This document shows positions 28,872 through 33,853 of a stretch of 50,405 nucleotides of DNA, piece by piece. The notes under the pieces are model-generated. The model did no database searches. It saw nothing but the letters and a program-made list of their open reading frames with translations, and was not told where the DNA came from. Every line of letters starts with the position of its first letter. Position 1 is the stretch's first letter. Made by a program: the position numbers and the translations under genes. Origin of the DNA: a virus; UHGV virus genome UHGV-0169486. The stretch is one strand, 5' to 3'.

Positions 28872-30356
28872 TTAAAATCCGCGCAGGCGCTTAGGTAACA
28901 TGAGGCCCACAGCCTGTGGCTGGCTTAATTCAGTGATACCCCATACCATCGCGTCGAGGCGGTCGGGTGATTTTTTAGCGGTAGCTGGCACGTATTCCAT
29001 CATTTGATTTTCCAGCGTGTACAGGCTGCCAGTGTGGGCTACCCTTCCCTGTGCATACAGTGCCGATATTGGCTCGGCGCGGGCGAATTTACCTTTGCTT
29101 GCGTGCACCTTAACAATGCGGCCTTTGAATCCGGCATTACGCAACGTGGCCACTGCCATTTCGCCGCCCTGGTTGGTTTCGATAACTATCGCATCAGCCT
29201 CATGGATGTTATAAGCGTTCATTGAGGCTTGCGCCCAATCGTTAGGAGACATGCGGCCTGAGTAGTCACCGTCTACTGAATACTGTGCGTACTTGCCGCC
29301 ACCATAGGCGGAACATGCCACGATCCCGGTTTCGTCCGATTCATCAGATGATGTTGTAGCCGGGTCGATGGCTATTACCGTGCGAATCTTGTCCTGCGTT
29401 ATCTGCATCCGGTGCGCAGCGGTTATCATCGCTTCCGTCCACAATGCGCCTTCCTCGTCGAATTTACGCGGGCGCTGCATATATTGGGCTTCGAATGACC
29501 TGCGGTGCGCCTTTAGTCCGGCTTCGTGGCTGTCATTGTGCTTTTTAGGCCATAGCCAGCCGTCCGGCAGGTTGTGAGCAATAGGAATAGCGAATTCATT
29601 TTCCGGGTACAGATCCCAATAGTCGACGCTGTTATCAATCTTCACAGGCAGGTTGAGGTGATACCATTTCTCACCGCTTCCACCGCGTAACAGGTAGCCG
29701 GACAAATCATCGTAGTGGATGCGTTGCATGATAACGATCACTGGCGTTGTTTGTACTGCCAGACGTGAAGCCAGCGTGTCGTTGTAGTTGGTCTTTACCT
29801 TCTCACGCATCACATCAGAGTAAGCGTCAGCGGGCTTTAATGGGTCGTCGATAATCATCGCGCCGTTGAAGCCCGGCTCCATGTAACCAGCACGGAAGCC
29901 TGTTATCTGGCCCTGTGAAGATGCGGCATATATCCCGCCTCCCTGTTCCGTCCACCACATTGATTTACTGTTGGCATCATTGCGGATCTTCATAGGCCAT
30001 AACTTCTGGTATTCCTGCGAGCAAATCATGTTTCTGACTGTCGAGGAATTGAGTAACGCAAGATTGTCGGAATAGGAAACGTGAAGGAAACGTGTGCGGG
30101 GATTTATTGCGAGGGACCGCGCCATCATGTTAATGGTCGCAATCATGGTTTTACCGTACCCTGGGGGAATGTTAATGATGAGACGGGTAATCTCACCATT
30201 GATAACGCGTTGTAGCGCATCGCGTATGGCTATGTGATGGCCTGAGATTAACATCTTCGTGCCGTTGGCCTGCTTATAGAAATAACGGTTGAAGAACAAG
30301 CCATCGTTTTCACATTTGGATTGAATAACCCTTTCTTTGATGGACAACATAATCAC
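28872..30356 (-). CDS. terminase large subunit
   Basis: Walker A-like PPGYGKT; nuclease-type C-terminal region; ATGA overlap with small subunit gene. Confidence 0.85.
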   Translation of the reverse strand: MIMLSIKERVIQSKCENDGLFFNRYFYKQANGTKMLISGHHIAIRDALQRVINGEITRLIINIPPGYGKTMIATINMMARSLAINPRTRFLHVSYSDNLALLNSSTVRNMICSQEYQKLWPMKIRNDANSKSMWWTEQGGGIYAASSQGQITGFRAGYMEPGFNGAMIIDDPLKPADAYSDVMREKVKTNYNDTLASRLAVQTTPVIVIMQRIHYDDLSGYLLRGGSGEKWYHLNLPVKIDNSVDYWDLYPENEFAIPIAHNLPDGWLWPKKHNDSHEAGLKAHRRSFEAQYMQRPRKFDEEGALWTEAMITAAHRMQITQDKIRTVIAIDPATTSSDESDETGIVACSAYGGGKYAQYSVDGDYSGRMSPNDWAQASMNAYNIHEADAIVIETNQGGEMAVATLRNAGFKGRIVKVHASKGKFARAEPISALYAQGRVAHTGSLYTLENQMMEYVPATAKKSPDRLDAMVWGITELSQPQAVGLMLPKRLRGF

Positions 30357-30838
30357 ACCTCGTCTTCTACTTCCTGGACGATGCGGGCGATCTCTTCTTT
30401 CGTGACTTCAACCTGGACGGGTGCTTCTTCCTTGTTGCCGACGATCTCCTGTGTGACGCGTTCGCCATATTTACGCGGTTGCAGTTTTGCCAGTAACCAT
30501 TTACGCGTTTCAATCATTAGTTGGTGGCGGCGTAGTTGGTCTTTATCAACGTTCTTAGCATCATCAGCTATATCGAGGATCTCATCAGCTAATACCTCGA
30601 AGCCGATTTCCTTCGCGTGCATGTACATGTCCGAGAATTCCGGCACGTCTCTAAACCATTTCAGGATTGTGGAACGGGTAGGCATACCAGGCATTTTCGA
30701 AATTTTGTTAACACTCTGACCGTCCGCCACCAGCTCACAGATTTCTAATGCTTTTTCTTCGGTATAACCATGCGGACGGCCCACCTTTTTAGCGGCTGGC
30801 TTTTTGTCGTCAGCTTTTGCATTTTTAGTGCGGGCCAT
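30353..30838 (-). CDS. terminase small subunit
   Basis: Basic N-terminus with HTH; GAGAGGTGA RBS; immediately upstream of large subunit. Confidence 0.7.
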   Translation of the reverse strand: MARTKNAKADDKKPAAKKVGRPHGYTEEKALEICELVADGQSVNKISKMPGMPTRSTILKWFRDVPEFSDMYMHAKEIGFEVLADEILDIADDAKNVDKDQLRRHQLMIETRKWLLAKLQPRKYGERVTQEIVGNKEEAPVQVEVTKEEIARIVQEVEDEV

Positions 30839-30928
30839 AATTCACCTCTCAATATTTATTGATGATATATACGCAAGCAACAAAACTTGCACAGTATGTT
30901 AATACTTCCAACCAGTCGAATAGCTTTT

Positions 30929-31072
30929 TCATTGTTTAACCTTAAATCTCTGTTTTGCTTCTCTGTAAATAAGCGCGGTAATCATTACAATCACGTATAC
31001 GCATAACATTAATGCGGCAATAAGCAGACCAGCGCAAAGCAAGAACGTTAGCAGATTGAGGAATTCAGACAT
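30929..31072 (-). CDS. micro-ORF A, 47 aa single-TM peptide
   Basis: Own translation MSEFLNLLTFLLCAGLLIAALMLCVYVIVMITALIYREAKQRFKVKQ; start 3 codons after stop of preceding micro-ORF. Confidence 0.4.
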   Translation of the reverse strand: MSEFLNLLTFLLCAGLLIAALMLCVYVIVMITALIYREAKQRFKVKQ

Positions 31073-31081
31073 GATGCTTTC

Positions 31082-31150
31082 TCACGCAAAAAAAACGATA
31101 ACGGCTAACAGTGTGCATATAGCCATAATTAAGAAATCACCGTCAGACAT
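31082..31150 (-). CDS. micro-ORF B2, 22 aa hydrophobic peptide
   Basis: Own translation MSDGDFLIMAICTLLAVIVFFA; ATG overlaps stop region of B1. Confidence 0.3.
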   Translation of the reverse strand: MSDGDFLIMAICTLLAVIVFFA

Positions 31151-31217
31151 TGATAATAAACCCCACAATAACAGCCGCTGCAATACATACGAATAATACA
31201 GCCTCGATGGTTTCCAT
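31143..31217 (-). CDS. micro-ORF B1, 24 aa hydrophobic peptide
   Basis: Own translation METIEAVLFVCIAAAVIVGFIINV; AGGTGA RBS. Confidence 0.4.
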   Translation of the reverse strand: METIEAVLFVCIAAAVIVGFIINV

Positions 31218-31225
31218 ATATTCAC

Positions 31226-31294
31226 CTATTGAGTCAACGCGGTCATGGTAAGAACAATCGCAACGGTCAGGAAAAATAAATCAAGCCATTTCAT
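31226..31294 (-). CDS. micro-ORF C, 22 aa hydrophobic peptide
   Basis: Own translation MKWLDLFFLTVAIVLTMTALTQ; GGGAGA RBS; ATGA overlap with micro-ORF D. Confidence 0.4.
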   Translation of the reverse strand: MKWLDLFFLTVAIVLTMTALTQ

Positions 31295-31371
31295 TTTTTA
31301 GTCTCCCGGTATACGTCCACGGCAATAACTGCAACGGCAGCCACCAGCAATAGCATTTCGTAGGCGTTCAT
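31291..31371 (-). CDS. micro-ORF D, 26 aa hydrophobic peptide (MNAY family)
   Basis: Own translation MNAYEMLLLVAAVAVIAVDVYRETKK; ATGA overlap with micro-ORF E. Confidence 0.4.
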   Translation of the reverse strand: MNAYEMLLLVAAVAVIAVDVYRETKK

Positions 31372-31466
31372 TTGATACTACCTACAACCAGACCGATGAT
31401 GATGATTATGGCGACAATGCCTAACATCATGCCGCACATAATCGCCAGTAATTCGAATATATCCAT
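31368..31466 (-). CDS. micro-ORF E, 32 aa hydrophobic peptide
   Basis: Own translation MDIFELLAIMCGMMLGIVAIIIIIGLVVGSIK; AGGTGA RBS. Confidence 0.4.
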   Translation of the reverse strand: MDIFELLAIMCGMMLGIVAIIIIIGLVVGSIK

Positions 31467-31474
31467 GCCGTCAC

Positions 31475-31549
31475 CTATACAACATTCTTTAACCACAGAT
31501 ACATAATGACGGCGAGTGATGAGCACCAGATGAGATCGTAAATATTCAT
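31475..31549 (-). CDS. micro-ORF F, 24 aa hydrophobic peptide (MNIY, paralog of H)
   Basis: Own translation MNIYDLIWCSSLAVIMYLWLKNVV; AAGGTA RBS; shares TACGATCTCATCTGGT with H. Confidence 0.4.
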   Translation of the reverse strand: MNIYDLIWCSSLAVIMYLWLKNVV

Positions 31550-31559
31550 GTTGATACCT

Positions 31560-31634
31560 TTAGCTTTCGATGAATATCATGACCGCCAGCCATACAGCGA
31601 CGCATGCAGAAAGGATAACGACCGGGTCAATCAT
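31560..31634 (-). CDS. micro-ORF G, 24 aa hydrophobic peptide
   Basis: Own translation MIDPVVILSACVAVWLAVMIFIES; GGTGA RBS. Confidence 0.4.
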   Translation of the reverse strand: MIDPVVILSACVAVWLAVMIFIES

Positions 31635-31639
31635 ATTTT

Positions 31640-31714
31640 TCACCACAGCCTGTAAATGTTCACGCAAATACCTACGATGAGCACCAATAACCAGATGAGA
31701 TCGTAGGCGTTCAT
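31640..31714 (-). CDS. micro-ORF H, 24 aa hydrophobic peptide (MNAY family)
   Basis: Own translation MNAYDLIWLLVLIVGICVNIYRLW; ATGA overlap with micro-ORF I. Confidence 0.4.
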   Translation of the reverse strand: MNAYDLIWLLVLIVGICVNIYRLW

Positions 31715-31806
31715 AATTTACTCTTTACGGTTATCAGCACGGCAATGACAAAACACACCAGAAATACAGAAACACCGATTAGTCCGGCGATGATGTTCTC
31801 ATCCAT
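31711..31806 (-). CDS. micro-ORF I, 31 aa hydrophobic peptide
   Basis: Own translation MDENIIAGLIGVSVFLVCFVIAVLITVKSKL; weak RBS. Confidence 0.35.
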   Translation of the reverse strand: MDENIIAGLIGVSVFLVCFVIAVLITVKSKL

Positions 31807-31810
31807 AATA

Positions 31811-31879
31811 TTAATGCCCGTATATCAAGATCACAGCGGCAGCAATACCAACAAATACGCCTAACAGAAAAGTAAACAT
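31811..31879 (-). CDS. micro-ORF J, 22 aa hydrophobic peptide
   Basis: Own translation MFTFLLGVFVGIAAAVILIYGH; GAGGGTGA RBS; ATG 2 nt after stop of the HExxH protein gene. Confidence 0.4.
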   Translation of the reverse strand: MFTFLLGVFVGIAAAVILIYGH

Positions 31880-31881
31880 AA

Positions 31882-32424
31882 TCACCCTCGTTTAAAGCTC
31901 ATTACGCGCGGCACATATGCCTCTTTTGATTTCGGCTTACGTTTACCTTTCTTCGCTGGCTTTTCTTCTTCCTTCGGCTGTTCTGCCTGTTCCAGCGCCT
32001 GATCGACGACTTCTGCCGCCTGCATTGCTGCAACCTGTGCTTCGTTTGATTCTGCCAGGATAGGGGAAAACGCATCGAAGATACGGCCTACCATGTAAGC
32101 GTAAGTCTCATTCGCCGGATGGGTAGGATCCGTGGTAGCCACGACGCCTACATCACTTAAAACGTGGAATGTAGTGTGGGCGCATTCATGGACCAGCGTT
32201 CCCAACTCATTGTTGAATACTGCGATCACGTAGAAGTTACCACCATTCTCGCCAGTGCAAGTAAGCGTTAATCCTTCAGCCAACTCGAAATCAGGTTCAA
32301 TCGGAATTCCTGCCTTTTCGCAAAATTCATAGAACATCTCGCTGGTCGGGCAAAAGAAAACAGTGGTATGCTCAAAAAGCGGGATCTTGAAGTGAGGCAA
32401 CTTAATGCCTTTAGCCTTAGCCAT
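31882..32424 (-). CDS. HExxH-motif protein (putative zinc metallopeptidase-like) with Lys-rich C-terminal tail
   Basis: ORF track; HECAH motif; AGGAG RBS; between lysis cassette and micro-ORF array. Confidence 0.6.
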   Translation of the reverse strand: MAKAKGIKLPHFKIPLFEHTTVFFCPTSEMFYEFCEKAGIPIEPDFELAEGLTLTCTGENGGNFYVIAVFNNELGTLVHECAHTTFHVLSDVGVVATTDPTHPANETYAYMVGRIFDAFSPILAESNEAQVAAMQAAEVVDQALEQAEQPKEEEKPAKKGKRKPKSKEAYVPRVMSFKRG

Positions 32425-32702
32425 CAGAATAATCTCCTATTCTGAAAAATATAACCCCCGCAAAACTCGACACCGCAGGGAGTGAAAACAGCTATAAAAC
32501 ACTGAAAACGGCGCTTCATCAGTACCGTTTCCAGAATTTTATAAAATTGGTGGATGGCGCTTTCTTCTACCCAGGTAGCGCCGACCTGTTAATGGGATGG
32601 ATGATCCGGTATTACGTGTTTTTGACTATTCCGCAGTCGCTCGCGGGAAGGATTGACCCGGTTATGGCTGGCTGGCGAAAACGGCGACACGTCCACGCGC
32701 TG

Positions 32703-33173
32703 TTATTTTTTGCGTAAGCACTGCGTTTTGATGTAGTCCTGCAATCCGGTGATCTTCGCGTCTTTCTCTTTTAGTTGTTCTCTGAGGGATAGATAAGCCG
32801 ATTCAGCGTCGGCAGTGAGTCTACAGGTGGCTCCATCAATGCGGCTGGCGGTTCCGGTATTGTCGAGCAATCGCACTGGCTCGGCGTTGACGTGCAACCT
32901 GATAGCGCCGCTATCAATGCCAGCGCGAAGATCGGCAATGTCAGATCTGATAGCTTTAATTTCATCGTGATACCTCTTATCAAGTTTTGATAGCTCTGCG
33001 TTTCGCTCCTTCATCTGCTGAATAGTGTTACTTGCTGTTTTTAGTGCGCCTTGCGTCACCGTGACTTCTTCCTGTAACCTTGCCGCCTCACCCTGGTAAT
33101 AACATGTAACGGCAGTTAGTCCGGCAATAATGCAAACAACAACGGCAATAACTAACGCCTTTACCTTGTCCAT
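32703..33173 (-). CDS. Rz: i-spanin (Rz-like)
   Basis: N-terminal TM segment, coiled-coil body; downstream of endolysin; contains embedded Rz1-like ORF. Confidence 0.75.
32771..32965 (-). CDS. Rz1: o-spanin (Rz1-like lipoprotein) embedded in Rz in +1 frame
   Basis: Signal peptide with lipobox LSGC; Pro-rich mature part; fully embedded in Rz. Confidence 0.6.
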   Translation of the reverse strand: MKLKLSDLTLPIFALALIAALSGCTSTPSQCDCSTIPEPPAALMEPPVDSLPTLNRLIYPSENN

Positions 33174-33652
33174 GTTTCACCCCATTCGCAAACGGCATAT
33201 TCAATATCACGACGGTTAATTAACCCTTGCCACTGCTTACCACCAGCATAGATCCAGCGTTTAAGCTGTGCGCACGCTTCCGATTTCTTGCCGTCATTGA
33301 GTAGCTTCAATAATGTTGATGTTTTAAAGTTGGTAGCGCCTACGTTATAGGCGAATGAATAAAGCGCCGCGCGGGTAAAATCTGATATTTCGACTTTAAT
33401 ATAGGGGTCGATCGCTTTTGCGGTTTTGTGGAGATCTTTATTTAACAAAGCATCGCATTCTGATTGCGTGTAAGTCTTACCAAGCATGATGTCTTTTCCG
33501 GTATGACCATAACATACAGTCCATACACCGATAACATCACGATACGGATCGTACTCCACGCCTTCTAATGATTTAACCATCACAGCCGCAATAGAGATCG
33601 CCCCACCAGCCGCCGCAGCAATAATCTTGTTCTTCAGCGATTGGCTAATCAT
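33161..33652 (-). CDS. SAR endolysin (lysozyme, phage 21 R-like)
   Basis: N-terminal SAR-like hydrophobic segment [15 protein letters not shown] followed by lysozyme catalytic region [10 protein letters not shown]...[11 protein letters not shown]; recalled similarity to phage 21 lysozyme. Confidence 0.85.
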
Positions 33653-33853
33653 TTACTTATTCCCCATTCGCGCGTCGTGTTCCTCTTGCGCTCGCTTGTT
33701 CTCCTGTGATTTGAAGTAATAGTTAACGGCAAATGTACCTGCGGTTGATAAGATACCCACAAAGACAGCAACATCATTGATGGTTATCGCACCGAAAAAG
33801 GCCGTTACGGCCCCTACTGCATACGCGCACGTCTCCCGTATTTTGTCGAGCAT
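33653..33853 (-). CDS. holin (class II / pinholin-like)
   Basis: 66 aa, two TM segments, charged C-terminus; GGAGG RBS; immediately upstream of endolysin. Confidence 0.7.
   Translation of the reverse strand: MLDKIRETCAYAVGAVTAFFGAITINDVAVFVGILSTAGTFAVNYYFKSQENKRAQEEHDARMGNK

Follow-up and report, generated by a model that had tools for sequence, protein, structure and literature searches.

A tandem array of candidate single-pass membrane micro-protein genes in the late operon of mEpimmI coliphages

The locus and its neighborhood

The window analyzed here is the 50,405-nt virus genome UHGV-0169486, a human-gut contig of a mEpimmI (mEp021-like) temperate coliphage. On its minus strand, a gap of 1,043 nt separates the gene of a 180-aa HExxH protein (31882..32424), located upstream, from the gene of the small terminase subunit, terS (30353..30838), located downstream. 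TerS matches the Pfam family Sf6_terminase (PF20901, E = 2e-37). The HExxH protein is characterized by H79ExxH83, E106 and a Lys-rich tail, and belongs to phrog_1365, whose function is listed as unknown. Its homologs are confined to the mEpimmI phage family; no match was found in Pfam, NCBIfam, PADLOC or PDB using single sequence or profile searches, and its AF2 model is poor (pLDDT 54). One homolog carries the source label ‘PolyVal metallopeptidase’, which is a lead only.

A lysis cassette composed of holin, endolysin and Rz/Rz1 is located 0.8-2 kb upstream of the gap in the same gene block. The class II holin adjoins the endolysin (33653-33853), and the N-terminus of the latter is a Gly/Ala-rich, hydrophobic segment that is SAR-like. 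Between the endolysin and the features described below, which start approximately 1.3 kb downstream of it, are located Rz/Rz1, a hairpin-bearing spacer of 278 nt and the HExxH gene. In mEp021, the hairpin at the corresponding position is annotated as a terminator.

Twelve micro-ORFs between the HExxH gene and terS

An ORF scan of the gap reveals 12 consecutive ATG-start ORFs of 22-47 codons on the minus strand (A to L, from the HExxH gene towards terS), which tile 94.6% of its length. A sequence-only reading of the same DNA had counted 11 ORFs of this size range; these correspond to A-K and were all retrieved, but the true count is 12, as L (30932-30849) lies beyond the range that it had considered. 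Nine products stay below 30 residues, and the other three are ≥ 30 aa long. All 12 reach a 15-residue Kyte-Doolittle maximum of at least 1.99 (range 1.99-3.34). Dinucleotide shuffles (n = 2,000) contain on average 1.7 and at most 6 such TM-type ORFs, so that none of the 2,000 reaches 12, and the same scan detects none on the opposite strand of the interval. A chain finder that searches for three or more adjacent TM micro-ORFs located no further array elsewhere in the window.

The junctions between neighboring micro-ORFs all measure between -8 and +10 nt, and stop codons sit inside the Shine-Dalgarno (SD) sequence of the next gene at some of them. ATGA start/stop overlaps, which had been noted earlier, are indeed present at four junctions (B/C, F/G, G/H and K/L), in addition to an 8-nt overlap of I and J. 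Codon position 2 is a T in 54% of the array codons. GC3 is 0.50 versus 0.44-0.59 in the neighboring genes, and codon use is alike.

Distribution among related phages and prophages

Approximately 100 related phage, prophage and metagenome loci bear the same peptides at the same site. They originate from phages (7), IMG/VR contigs (37), metagenome contigs (20) and prophages (35 matched, of which 14 were fetched), and the HExxH-array-TerS context is identical in every locus that reaches both flanks. At least 20 peptide families were distinguished, with 5-13 genes per genome arranged in 39 architectures without a single violation of gene order. Members D, G, H and L are near-universal, whereas about 16 families are accessory. 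From their distribution, D, G, H and L appear to behave as core genes of the mEpimmI family, and the accessory members appear to be modules that are gained and lost cleanly at gene boundaries. Single members are dispensable in nature, as seen from accessory families that are present or absent, from two lost start codons and from the nonsense codon in F.

Micro-ORFs C, E and G, the third, fifth and seventh of the array, form a paralog family (MN[AI]Y[DE]). C and E share a 16-nt block (TACGATCTCATCTGGT) followed by a 6-nt indel, whereas the first 14 nt of C and G are identical; shuffle z-scores are 4.4 for C-E and 11.5 for C-G. The sequence-only reading had described the family, the block and the indel correctly, but had assigned them to D, F and H. 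Since several micro-ORFs are paralogous, duplication contributed to the array. The earlier view of an array growing by duplication stands for the past, but the genomes now differ by the presence or absence of families within a fixed order rather than through continuing tandem amplification.

Outside the mEpimmI family, no comparable array was detected in the phage records, genomes and terS loci searched. A tblastn search with the concatenated peptides against 50,697 phage records matched only the 7 mEpimmI phages, and degenerate DNA patterns for D and G gave no match in 100,044 species-representative genomes. The chain finder identified no array in 72 loci (490 kb) with a distantly related Sf6-type terS, nor in the Sf6 genome. 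In the flanks of related contigs, the sole other chain is a 3-member chain of dissimilar peptides in L032.

The individual micro-ORFs

All micro-ORFs are encoded on the minus strand. Family presence was counted over 53 distinct intervals, and intactness refers to copies found by DNA similarity. Micro-ORF A (31811..31879; 22 aa, MFTFLLGVFVGIAAAVILIYGH) starts 2 nt past the HExxH stop codon, behind GAGGGTGA, and this stop codon is located inside its SD; an alternative in-frame GTG at 31885 would yield 24 aa. Its family occurs in 26/53 intervals with a pN/pS of 0.19. B (31711..31806; 31 aa, MDENIIAGLIGVSVFLVCFVIAVLITVKSKL) is present in 40/53 intervals (pN/pS 0.29). C (31640..31714; 24 aa, MNAYDLIWLLVLIVGICVNIYRLW) is limited to 11/53 intervals, with 10/10 copies intact. 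D (31560..31634; 24 aa, MIDPVVILSACVAVWLAVMIFIES) is a core member found in 52/53 intervals and is intact in 60/60 copies. Its common form, MIDPLIILSACVAVWLAIMIFIES, is identical in L022, though the neighboring HExxH protein of L022 is only 59% identical. E (31475..31549; 24 aa, MNIYDLIWCSSLAVIMYLWLKNVV) occurs in 41/53 intervals and is intact in 42/44 copies; one disrupted copy has ATA for ATG.

F (31368..31466; 32 aa, MDIFELLAIMCGMMLGIVAIIIIIGLVVGSIK) is found in 28/53 intervals (pN/pS 0.19). The ORF listing also contains a GTG-start extension of F, a 52-aa ORF overlapping E; codon 5 is a nonsense codon in prophage L008, and a C-terminal length variant (...GSVNERI/V) exists among relatives. 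The core members G (31291..31371; 26 aa, MNAYEMLLLVAAVAVIAVDVYRETKK) and H (31226..31294; 22 aa, MKWLDLFFLTVAIVLTMTALTQ) are present in 53/53 and 52/53 intervals, with pN/pS values of 0.24 and 0.16, respectively. H is intact in 55/55 copies and has the best SD among the 12 (GGGAGA, -7.4 kcal/mol). I (31143..31217; 24 aa, METIEAVLFVCIAAAVIVGFIINV) occurs in 32/53 intervals, is intact in 32/32 copies and has the preceding stop codon embedded in its SD, TAGGTGA; in 7 other intervals its slot is taken by family X6 (MNAIDIML...). J (31082..31150; 22 aa, MSDGDFLIMAICTLLAVIVFFA) is present in 39/53 intervals and intact in 39/41 copies, with ACG for ATG in one copy. K (30929..31072; 47 aa), present in 15/53 intervals and intact in 13/13 copies, comprises an uncharged stretch of 33 residues and then a basic tail (REAKQRFKVKQ). 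The last member, L (30849..30932; 27 aa, MKKLFDWLEVLTYCASFVACVYIINKY), is again core: either L or its allele L2 is found in 53/53 intervals, although prophage L014 is without L. L is under strong constraint (pN 0.006 versus pS 0.194), and its stop codon is located 10 nt ahead of the terS ATG.

Annotation and selection on the reading frames

Of the 35 matching E. coli prophage loci, 14 complete ones were fetched from RefSeq; in these, PGAP annotates next to nothing over approximately 1 kb, except for stray calls in L013, L014 and L021, and in one genome an apparently spurious antisense ORF is called over the array. PHANOTATE merges neighboring micro-genes into longer, wrong-frame ORFs. A collection of 15 billion proteins contains only the three peptides of ≥ 30 aa, including the exact sequence of B, which is named once as ‘Membrane-associated protein’; K is carried in protein databases as ‘hypothetical protein’. 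The blank annotation is consistent with an interval that holds no genes at all, being either a non-coding element (a structured RNA or a packaging site) or what frameshifts have left of a single gene for a multi-pass membrane protein, and the twelve successive hydrophobic segments superficially resemble a decayed 12-TM transporter.

The variation among relatives argues against such an interval without genes, since codon-position pattern, pN/pS and ORF integrity all indicate selection on the frames. Variable sites across the related loci are distributed over codon positions 1, 2 and 3 as 105/77/197 (chi-square p = 3e-14). Pooled pN/pS is 0.25 in the proposed frames versus 0.96 and 1.54 in the shifted frames, and ranges from 0.16 to 0.55 in each of 14 families. 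An independent first-pass selection analysis also supports the proposed frames. Among 460 copies collected by DNA similarity alone, three are disrupted (one premature stop and two start-codon losses); the remaining differences are GTG starts or C-terminal length variants. The single-nucleotide indels between the window and L008 are all located at gene ends or junctions. DNA variants outnumber peptide variants for D (29 versus 16) and, in the first-pass set, for L (10 versus 2). The purifying selection is weaker than that on the neighboring HExxH domain (pN/pS 0.25 versus 0.11).

In addition, each segment possesses its own ATG and SD and is gained or lost at ORF boundaries. The concatenated peptides have no match in Pfam, and an Rfam search of the region (E ≤ 1) returned two sub-threshold chance matches only. 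A pseudogenized polytopic transporter was rejected on the missing Pfam match of the concatenated product and the strong selection on the frames, and we consider an interval without genes scarcely credible. Loss of the frames in related genomes and a structured RNA had been named earlier as observations that would speak against coding; instead, purifying selection maintains the frames in the relatives, and none of the Rfam families fits. In our judgment, the micro-ORFs are very probably genuine, translated genes under selection.

Translation signals and operon context

The SD duplex energy with the 16S 3' end averages -4.1 kcal/mol for the 12 ORFs versus -1.6 kcal/mol for 18 other ATGs in the region (Mann-Whitney p = 0.0013), with weak values for B, C and K (-2.4 to -2.8 kcal/mol). 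The SD-like pairing that the sequence-only reading had pointed out is thus real but modest. The minus strand is devoid of promoter-like sites both across the array and across the spacer that precedes the HExxH gene, and the only terminator-like match within the array is a weak 6-bp stem inside ORF B. The region as a whole has fewer promoter-like sites than expected (5 versus 8.9 in shuffles); on the plus strand, the best match (31551-31580) coincides with a junction that differs in sequence among relatives. The earlier placement of the array in the late operon agrees with these observations, as the ORFs are co-directional in the late gene block without an internal promoter-like or convincing terminator-like site. 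One late transcript would run from the HExxH gene through the array to terS, terL and the portal gene, and each peptide would be translated from its own ATG, aided by its modest SD and by termination-reinitiation.

The interval between the lysis and terminase genes is a classic accessory site in temperate coliphages, and the members of the array vary in presence, as morons do. However, morons have their own promoter and terminator and often an odd composition, whereas in the array neither a promoter-like site nor a convincing terminator was detected, GC3 is similar to that of the neighbors and four members are core-like. A moron with its own promoter was rejected given the absence of a promoter-like site, the GC3 and the last gene that ends 10 nt before terS.

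The tight junctions, the stop codons within the SD of the following gene and the proximity of the last stop codon to terS could also indicate that translation itself is what matters. Coupled mini-cistrons would then relay ribosomes over approximately 1 kb to terS, or bring the late, U-rich mRNA to the membrane, with the peptides themselves as by-products. Such targeting, to SecY/YidC, can occur for transcripts of small membrane proteins (PMC12648545). Against this reading, the amino-acid sequence is under selection (pN/pS 0.25 in frame, ~1 or higher off frame), and particular peptides (D and L) are near-constant while their DNA varies. Arrays of 5 and of 13 genes both exist, thus length is not the conserved feature, and the 72 loci with a distantly related Sf6-type terS do without such an array. 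We regard a role of translation as such as very improbable.

Membrane character and comparison with known small proteins

In the peptides, an uncharged core of 13-33 residues lies between an acidic N-terminal side and a neutral or basic C-terminal side, and most peptides carry one or two acidic residues at positions 2-5. The description of the products as short hydrophobic helices with charged ends holds for every product in terms of hydropathy and flanking charges. With TM status assigned by hydropathy alone, they are probably single-pass inner-membrane micro-proteins. By the positive-inside rule, the charge distribution would place them N-out/C-in in the E. coli inner membrane, and insertion would follow translation and use SecYEG or YidC, a route described for other small membrane proteins of bacteria (PMC12648545). 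Since the peptides have no soluble domain, their action would be confined to the membrane, through contacts between helices or through effects on membrane integrity.

Bacterial small membrane proteins such as YohP, AcrZ, MgtR/MgtS and CydX (PMC12648545) are similar in size (≤ 50 aa), in their single helix with few flanking charges and in being missed by gene callers. Their expected mode of insertion and their binding of larger membrane proteins would fit the array as well. In contrast, they are solitary or single operon members with a partner complex, while the array packs 5-13 unrelated or paralogous genes head-to-tail in a phage late operon with no partner gene evident, and family searches revealed no sequence homology of the array peptides to them. 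None of the individual peptides gave a hit above threshold in Pfam, NCBIfam, PHROGs or PADLOC.

Genes VII and IX of filamentous phages are adjacent, overlapping and coupled, and their hydrophobic products of 32-33 aa enter the inner membrane without signal peptides. They differ from the array in being virion cap proteins of a membrane assembly process and only two in number, whereas the present phage is a tailed siphovirus, for whose assembly we know of no membrane step.

Type I toxins (Ibs, Ldr, TisB, ShoB, Hok, Fst) are likewise hydrophobic, single-helix peptides of 19-50 aa, some of which occur as tandem paralogs in E. coli. Each of these, however, is transcribed from a promoter of its own and paired with an antisense RNA antitoxin, neither of which is apparent in the array, where the members are translationally chained. 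The best match to the type I toxin models is NF047374 (E = 0.29; 11.6 bits versus a cutoff of 60). Type I toxin-antitoxin modules were rejected for want of an own promoter, a conserved antisense element and a family model match. A broader possibility is that the peptides are generic, membrane-permeabilizing peptides, similar to type I toxins or viroporins, whose late build-up lowers the proton-motive force without a specific partner. Depolarization is a known trigger for holins and for SAR-endolysin release, and expression from a late operon would render toxicity harmless to the phage. Length (19-50 residues), single helix and short charged ends fit the description of type I toxins (PMC12648545). 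Nevertheless, NF047374 remains far below its cutoff, the coding strand has no separate promoter and the lone antisense promoter-like match is not conserved in relatives. Moreover, 20 distinct families in fixed order are hard to explain if any hydrophobic helix sufficed. Generic permeabilization is therefore unlikely.

Lysis tuning and host-directed effects

Tuning of the lysis pathway is our leading guess for the function, with targeting of host membrane proteins about equally plausible. The candidate roles offered by the sequence-only reading (lysis timing, membrane targeting, superinfection exclusion) are conjectural as well. The conjectured target is the phage's own class II holin and SAR-like endolysin, in which case the peptides would tune the timing of depolarization or endolysin release. 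Lysis-control proteins such as Mu releasin and LydC/LydD are larger (~70-150 aa), and to our knowledge 5-13 regulators far exceed what any known lysis system uses. Extra small membrane proteins are known to control SAR endolysin release, namely releasin gp25 of Mu (PMC9239132) and LydC/LydD of P1 (PMC9025707). The array peptides would resemble these proteins and antiholins in being phage-encoded, membrane-anchored, late and close to a holin/SAR-endolysin system. The known proteins differ in that they are single or few and have roles shown by genetics, and the array peptides match none of their families. Searches of the holin and antiholin families of Pfam, PHROGs and NCBIfam gave no peptide match; the array is located outside the lysis cassette, and a class II holin is already present beside the endolysin. 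Also against a role in lysis, the upstream cassette looks complete, so the array would not be essential lysis machinery, and the hairpin spacer and the HExxH gene set it apart from this cassette. An action on lysis timing is accordingly put forward as a tentative option, well short of even odds.

We give comparable, equally limited credence to host-directed effectors. Each peptide would bind a different host inner-membrane protein (a defense effector, a transporter, a DNA-entry factor exploited by other phages or a polymerase/flippase), resulting in a toolkit matched to hosts or competitors with possible roles in superinfection exclusion, anti-defense or host takeover. A precedent is Iap of phage D3, a peptide of ~31 residues that inhibits the host O-antigen polymerase. 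The combinatorial set of ~16 accessory families in 39 architectures is akin to accessory or counter-defense islands, paralog diversification is evident, and bacterial small membrane proteins are known to work by binding larger membrane proteins (PMC12648545). On the other hand, the selection is purifying rather than diversifying, four members are near-universal, and there is no match to PADLOC or other families. The array also has no promoter-like site for expression in the lysogen and no convincing terminator, and its composition is native, which makes exclusion by the prophage unlikely. In addition, the known exclusion factor of the mEpimmI phage group is a lipoprotein encoded elsewhere (PMC11893012).

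Implications

On the evidence of sequence and its conservation, we propose that the array consists of late-operon genes, so far unannotated, for single-pass membrane micro-proteins. To this explanation as a whole, namely twelve coding micro-genes that would yield membrane peptides, with lysis-pathway tuning as the leading guess, we assign a probability of roughly 0.6. The description of the mEpimmI family reports at least 50 core genes (PMC11893012); the array is not mentioned in the text or in the supplements of that paper that were searched, and the relevant locus tags, sought as proteomic support, do not appear in its supplements. In the literature searched, phage arrays of tiny TM genes have no direct precedent.

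A more speculative extension, which we rate as rather improbable, is a novel type of phage island: a cassette of fixed order but variable content that draws on at least 20 families of intramembrane binders (20-47 residues), each neutralizing or hijacking a different inner-membrane protein such as a transporter, a defense effector, the holin of the phage itself or a factor for DNA entry. If true, it would be a membrane-embedded counterpart of anti-defense islands with nearly all of its genes below the length cutoff of gene callers; four members would, in addition, belong to the core of the entire mEpimmI family without having been annotated.

The array offers a compact natural system to study how 22-residue helices come to have specific functions, how genes of this kind originate by duplication and how phages affect the host membrane at late stages of infection, if the peptides are indeed produced. 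In that case, four or more core genes and some sixteen accessory ones would be added to the mEpimmI family, and few known runs of membrane micro-proteins would be as dense as this array. Experimental work is feasible, as E. coli K-12 supports growth of mEp021 and of five sister phages.

Twelve micro-ORFs between the HExxH gene and terS

Twelve ATG-initiated ORFs lie one after another on the minus strand, from the stop codon of the upstream HExxH-motif protein gene (31882-32424, minus strand, 180 aa) to the start of the downstream small terminase gene terS (30353-30838, minus strand). These are A (31879-31811, 22 aa), B (31806-31711, 31 aa), C (31714-31640, 24 aa), D (31634-31560, 24 aa), E (31549-31475, 24 aa), F (31466-31368, 32 aa), G (31371-31291, 26 aa), H (31294-31226, 22 aa), I (31217-31143, 24 aa), J (31150-31082, 22 aa), K (31072-30929, 47 aa) and L (30932-30849, 27 aa). 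The sequence-only reading had counted eleven; all of them (A to K) were found, and L, just past the range it gave, makes twelve. For D, F and J, ORF listing also yields longer TTG- or GTG-initiated versions; the ATG starts are those conserved in relatives. Each of the 12 products has a Kyte-Doolittle 15-residue maximum of ≥ 1.99. Together they fill 94.6% of the gap (1,043 nt). Dinucleotide-preserving shuffles (n = 2,000) gave a mean of 1.7 such ORFs and a maximum of 6, and the opposite strand of the gap has none. The array's low G+C (0.41) is due to T, which fills 54% of codon position 2; in GC3 (0.50) and in the choice among synonymous codons it resembles the adjoining phage genes.

Conservation of the reading frames

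Orthologs for the integrity test were set by blastn alone, to avoid conditioning on the peptide. Disruption was found in 3 of 460 copies, two by loss of the ATG and one by a premature stop in F, where codon 5 changes from GAA to TAA in an otherwise 93.6% identical prophage of E. coli KKa019 (NZ_CP091664.1, ~1335-1350; window ~31452). Elsewhere the differences were limited to GTG starts and alterations of the final few codons. All single-nucleotide indels that separate the window from this 93.6% identical prophage lie at gene ends or junctions. Variable sites are distributed 105/77/197 over the codon positions (chi-square p = 3e-14), and, read in the proposed frames, the DNA has a pooled pN/pS of 0.25, versus 0.96 and 1.54 in its two shifted frames; each of 14 families falls within 0.16-0.55. 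An earlier, peptide-anchored analysis of selection agrees. The micro-genes are under constraint, though less tight than the adjoining HExxH domain, as the latter has a benchmark pN/pS of 0.11.

The frames are thus kept in relatives under purifying selection, and a structured ncRNA, which the sequence-only reading had named as an alternative, is not supported. Selection on the frames, together with the lack of any Rfam family at its threshold for the array region, rules out a non-coding element; non-coding explanations in general are unlikely because selection acts on the amino acid sequences. A decayed multi-pass gene was ruled out by the same selection and by the absence of a Pfam match for the concatenated product.

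Architecture across related loci

The comparison set comprised 21 phage and prophage loci, 2 contigs with divergent HExxH homologs, 37 IMG/VR contigs picked up by a degenerate pattern for peptide D, and 20 metagenome contigs. Every locus reaching both flanks has the order HExxH gene, array, terS. At least 20 peptide families are recognizable (X1-X7 and L2, an allele of L, being further families from related loci), in one constant order: X3, X4, X5, A, B, X7, C, D, E, F, G, X1, H, I or X6, J, X2, K, L or L2. The 53 distinct complete intervals represent 39 architectures with 5-13 genes each (median 9), all in keeping with this order. G and L or L2 are present in 53/53 intervals, D and H in 52/53 each. 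The largest array seen has 13 micro-genes (A-B-C-D-E-F-G-X1-H-X6-J-X2-L; metagenome contig ERZ1026903 NODE-85, 53,726 nt). One further prophage, in E. coli strain FAH (NZ_CP116035.1), is without micro-ORF L; an unrelated 47-aa acidic, non-hydrophobic ORF (MNDEELKIADEIRK...; WP_021537953.1) stands in its place before terS (1726-1869 of that locus). One contig shares only 59% identity with the window in its HExxH protein, yet its peptide D is the same as in most other loci.

Several families are paralogous: scoring against composition-preserving shuffles gave z = 11.5 for C-G, 9.5 for X1-X2, 8.8 for G-X6, 8.6 for I-X6, 4.5 for H-X2 and 4.4 for C-E. C and E are also identical over 16 nt at a matching offset, beyond which they differ by a 6-nt indel, and C and G have their first 14 nt in common. 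Part of the array therefore arose by duplication and divergence, in agreement with the sequence-only reading. Variation between genomes today, however, consists of presence or absence of modules at gene boundaries.

Relatives and annotation status

The window is essentially human-gut metagenome contig OZWA01000012.1 (IMGVR_UViG_3300045988_049781, 50,460 nt). The records nearest to it are seven Escherichia phages assigned to the mEp021 group (mEp021, mEp010, mEp013, mEp044, mEp515, mEp554 and MagusPhagus); prophages that match were also detected in 35 of the 5,426 complete E. coli genomes. The group, recently described as mEpimmI, consists of Nus-dependent, non-lambdoid temperate siphoviruses; new-family status has been proposed for it, with a core of at least 50 genes (PMC11893012). 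In the text and the supplements searched, that study was not found to mention transmembrane or small ORFs, or the locus tags of the interval. PGAP left the array unannotated in the 14 prophages fetched, save single calls in L013, L014 (the FAH prophage) and L021. The call in L013 (E. coli O157:H7 LSU61, NZ_CP038336.1; 906-1295) is a 129-aa hypothetical protein (WP_171877280.1) antisense to A, B and D, probably an artefact that the lack of annotation over the array allowed. PHANOTATE-based records call some array ORFs, but often lengthened by merging or in the wrong frame. A collection of 15 billion proteins includes B, F and K (≥ 30 aa) but none of the shorter peptides tested.

Searches of Pfam, NCBIfam, PHROGs and PADLOC yielded no family match for any peptide. 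In 50,697 phage records, tblastn hit the seven relatives only, and degenerate patterns for D and G found nothing in 100,044 species-representative genomes; within these collections the peptides are confined to the mEpimmI family. The arrangement is not general among phages with an Sf6-type terminase: neither Sf6 nor any of 72 loci (490 kb) whose Sf6-type terS is a distant relative has a run of ≥ 3 adjacent TM micro-ORFs.

The HExxH protein carries the motif H79ExxH83, a conserved E106 and a Lys-rich C-terminal tail. It is a core gene product with homologs found in the mEpimmI family only. Pfam, NCBIfam, PADLOC and PDB gave no match; as its only match is PHROG 1365 (function unknown) and its AF2 model is poor (pLDDT 54), it gives no functional clue to the array. 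In one source, a homolog with 59% identity bears the label 'PolyVal metallopeptidase'. In mEp013 alone (PP180002.1; 1097-1582 of the locus), an HNH endonuclease gene lies between the HExxH gene and the array; this junction is therefore an insertion hotspot.

Probable translational coupling and expression context

Consecutive micro-genes are spaced by -8 to +10 nt, with four ATGA overlaps, and several stops sit within the Shine-Dalgarno sequence of the next gene (TAGGTGA, GGGTGA). In every genome examined, the HExxH stop codon lies within the Shine-Dalgarno sequence of the first micro-gene, whichever that is. Predicted pairing with the 16S 3' end averages -4.1 kcal/mol at the 12 starts versus -1.6 at the 18 other ATGs in the region (p = 0.0013), and is weak at B, C and K. 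That the micro-genes serve purely as a translational relay is unlikely, since selection acts on their amino acid sequences.

Upstream lie a class II holin (33653-33853, minus strand, 66 aa; Pfam Phage_holin_2_3 matched on the ortholog in related locus L022), an endolysin (33161-33652, minus strand) and Rz (32703-33173, minus strand) with an embedded Rz1 lipoprotein ORF (32771-32983, minus strand). The endolysin starts with a Gly/Ala-rich, weakly hydrophobic segment preceded by Lys7 and Lys9, which we read as putatively of the signal-anchor-release (SAR) type, so that holin and endolysin (33161-33853) look like a pinholin/SAR pair. After the lysis genes come a 278-nt spacer with a hairpin, annotated as a terminator at the homologous position of mEp021, then the HExxH gene and the array. 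A 31-aa candidate ORF (MKRRFQCFIAVFTPCGVEFCGGYIFQNRRLF; 32424-32519, minus strand) overlaps this hairpin and runs up to the HExxH start codon; PHANOTATE called an ORF of the same length at the corresponding place in MagusPhagus (482-577 of the locus).

The late transcript of mEpimmI phages is said to need N-like and Q-like antitermination (PMC11893012). Because a consensus scan found no minus-strand promoter-like site in the array or spacer and, within the array, only one terminator-like match, a weak 6-bp stem inside ORF B, and because L ends 10 nt before terS, the array is most simply read as part of this transcript. The array is unlikely to be expressed in lysogens. Across the L/terS junction (30810-30891, minus strand) there is a weak match to the Rfam model of the ribosomal S15 leader (E = 0.02; 22.9 bits against a gathering threshold of 39.5), which is taken as chance.

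Predicted properties and function of the peptides

Each peptide is in essence one uncharged stretch of 13-33 residues. Asp or Glu occurs within positions 2-5 in 14 of 19 family representatives and the N-flank is net-negative in 13, whereas C-flanks are neutral or basic, most strongly so in K (REAKQRFKVKQ); the positive-inside rule therefore predicts an N-out/C-in orientation. Synthesis of a 22-32-residue chain would end while the chain is still inside the ribosome tunnel. Insertion would accordingly be post-translational, a mode reviewed for other small membrane proteins of bacteria (PMC12648545).

Since the peptides have no soluble domain, the membrane is the only place in which they can act; we rank three readings of their function. 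Foremost, at a probability of roughly 0.3, the peptides would modulate the phage's own lysis pathway, acting on the pinholin-type holin and SAR-type endolysin. Proximity, the presumed late co-expression and the precedents of Mu (PMC9239132) and P1 (PMC9025707), in which extra membrane proteins control SAR-endolysin release, argue for it; the gene count and the missing family match argue against it. Placed second, though about equally probable, is a role as effectors against inner-membrane proteins of the host or a competitor: the mix-and-match accessory content fits such a role, but purifying selection, the four core members (D, G, H and L) and the absence of any sign of lysogenic expression do not. 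Third, non-specific depolarization of the membrane is improbable.

The sequence-only observation is borne out and extended: the array is a real set of conserved, mostly unannotated genes for predicted single-helix membrane micro-proteins, arranged in a fixed-order cassette so far unique to mEpimmI phages. They are of the same kind as other phage and bacterial small membrane proteins, but the array differs in density, tiny size, core-plus-accessory structure and position. The function of its peptides is directly testable in phages growing on E. coli K-12.
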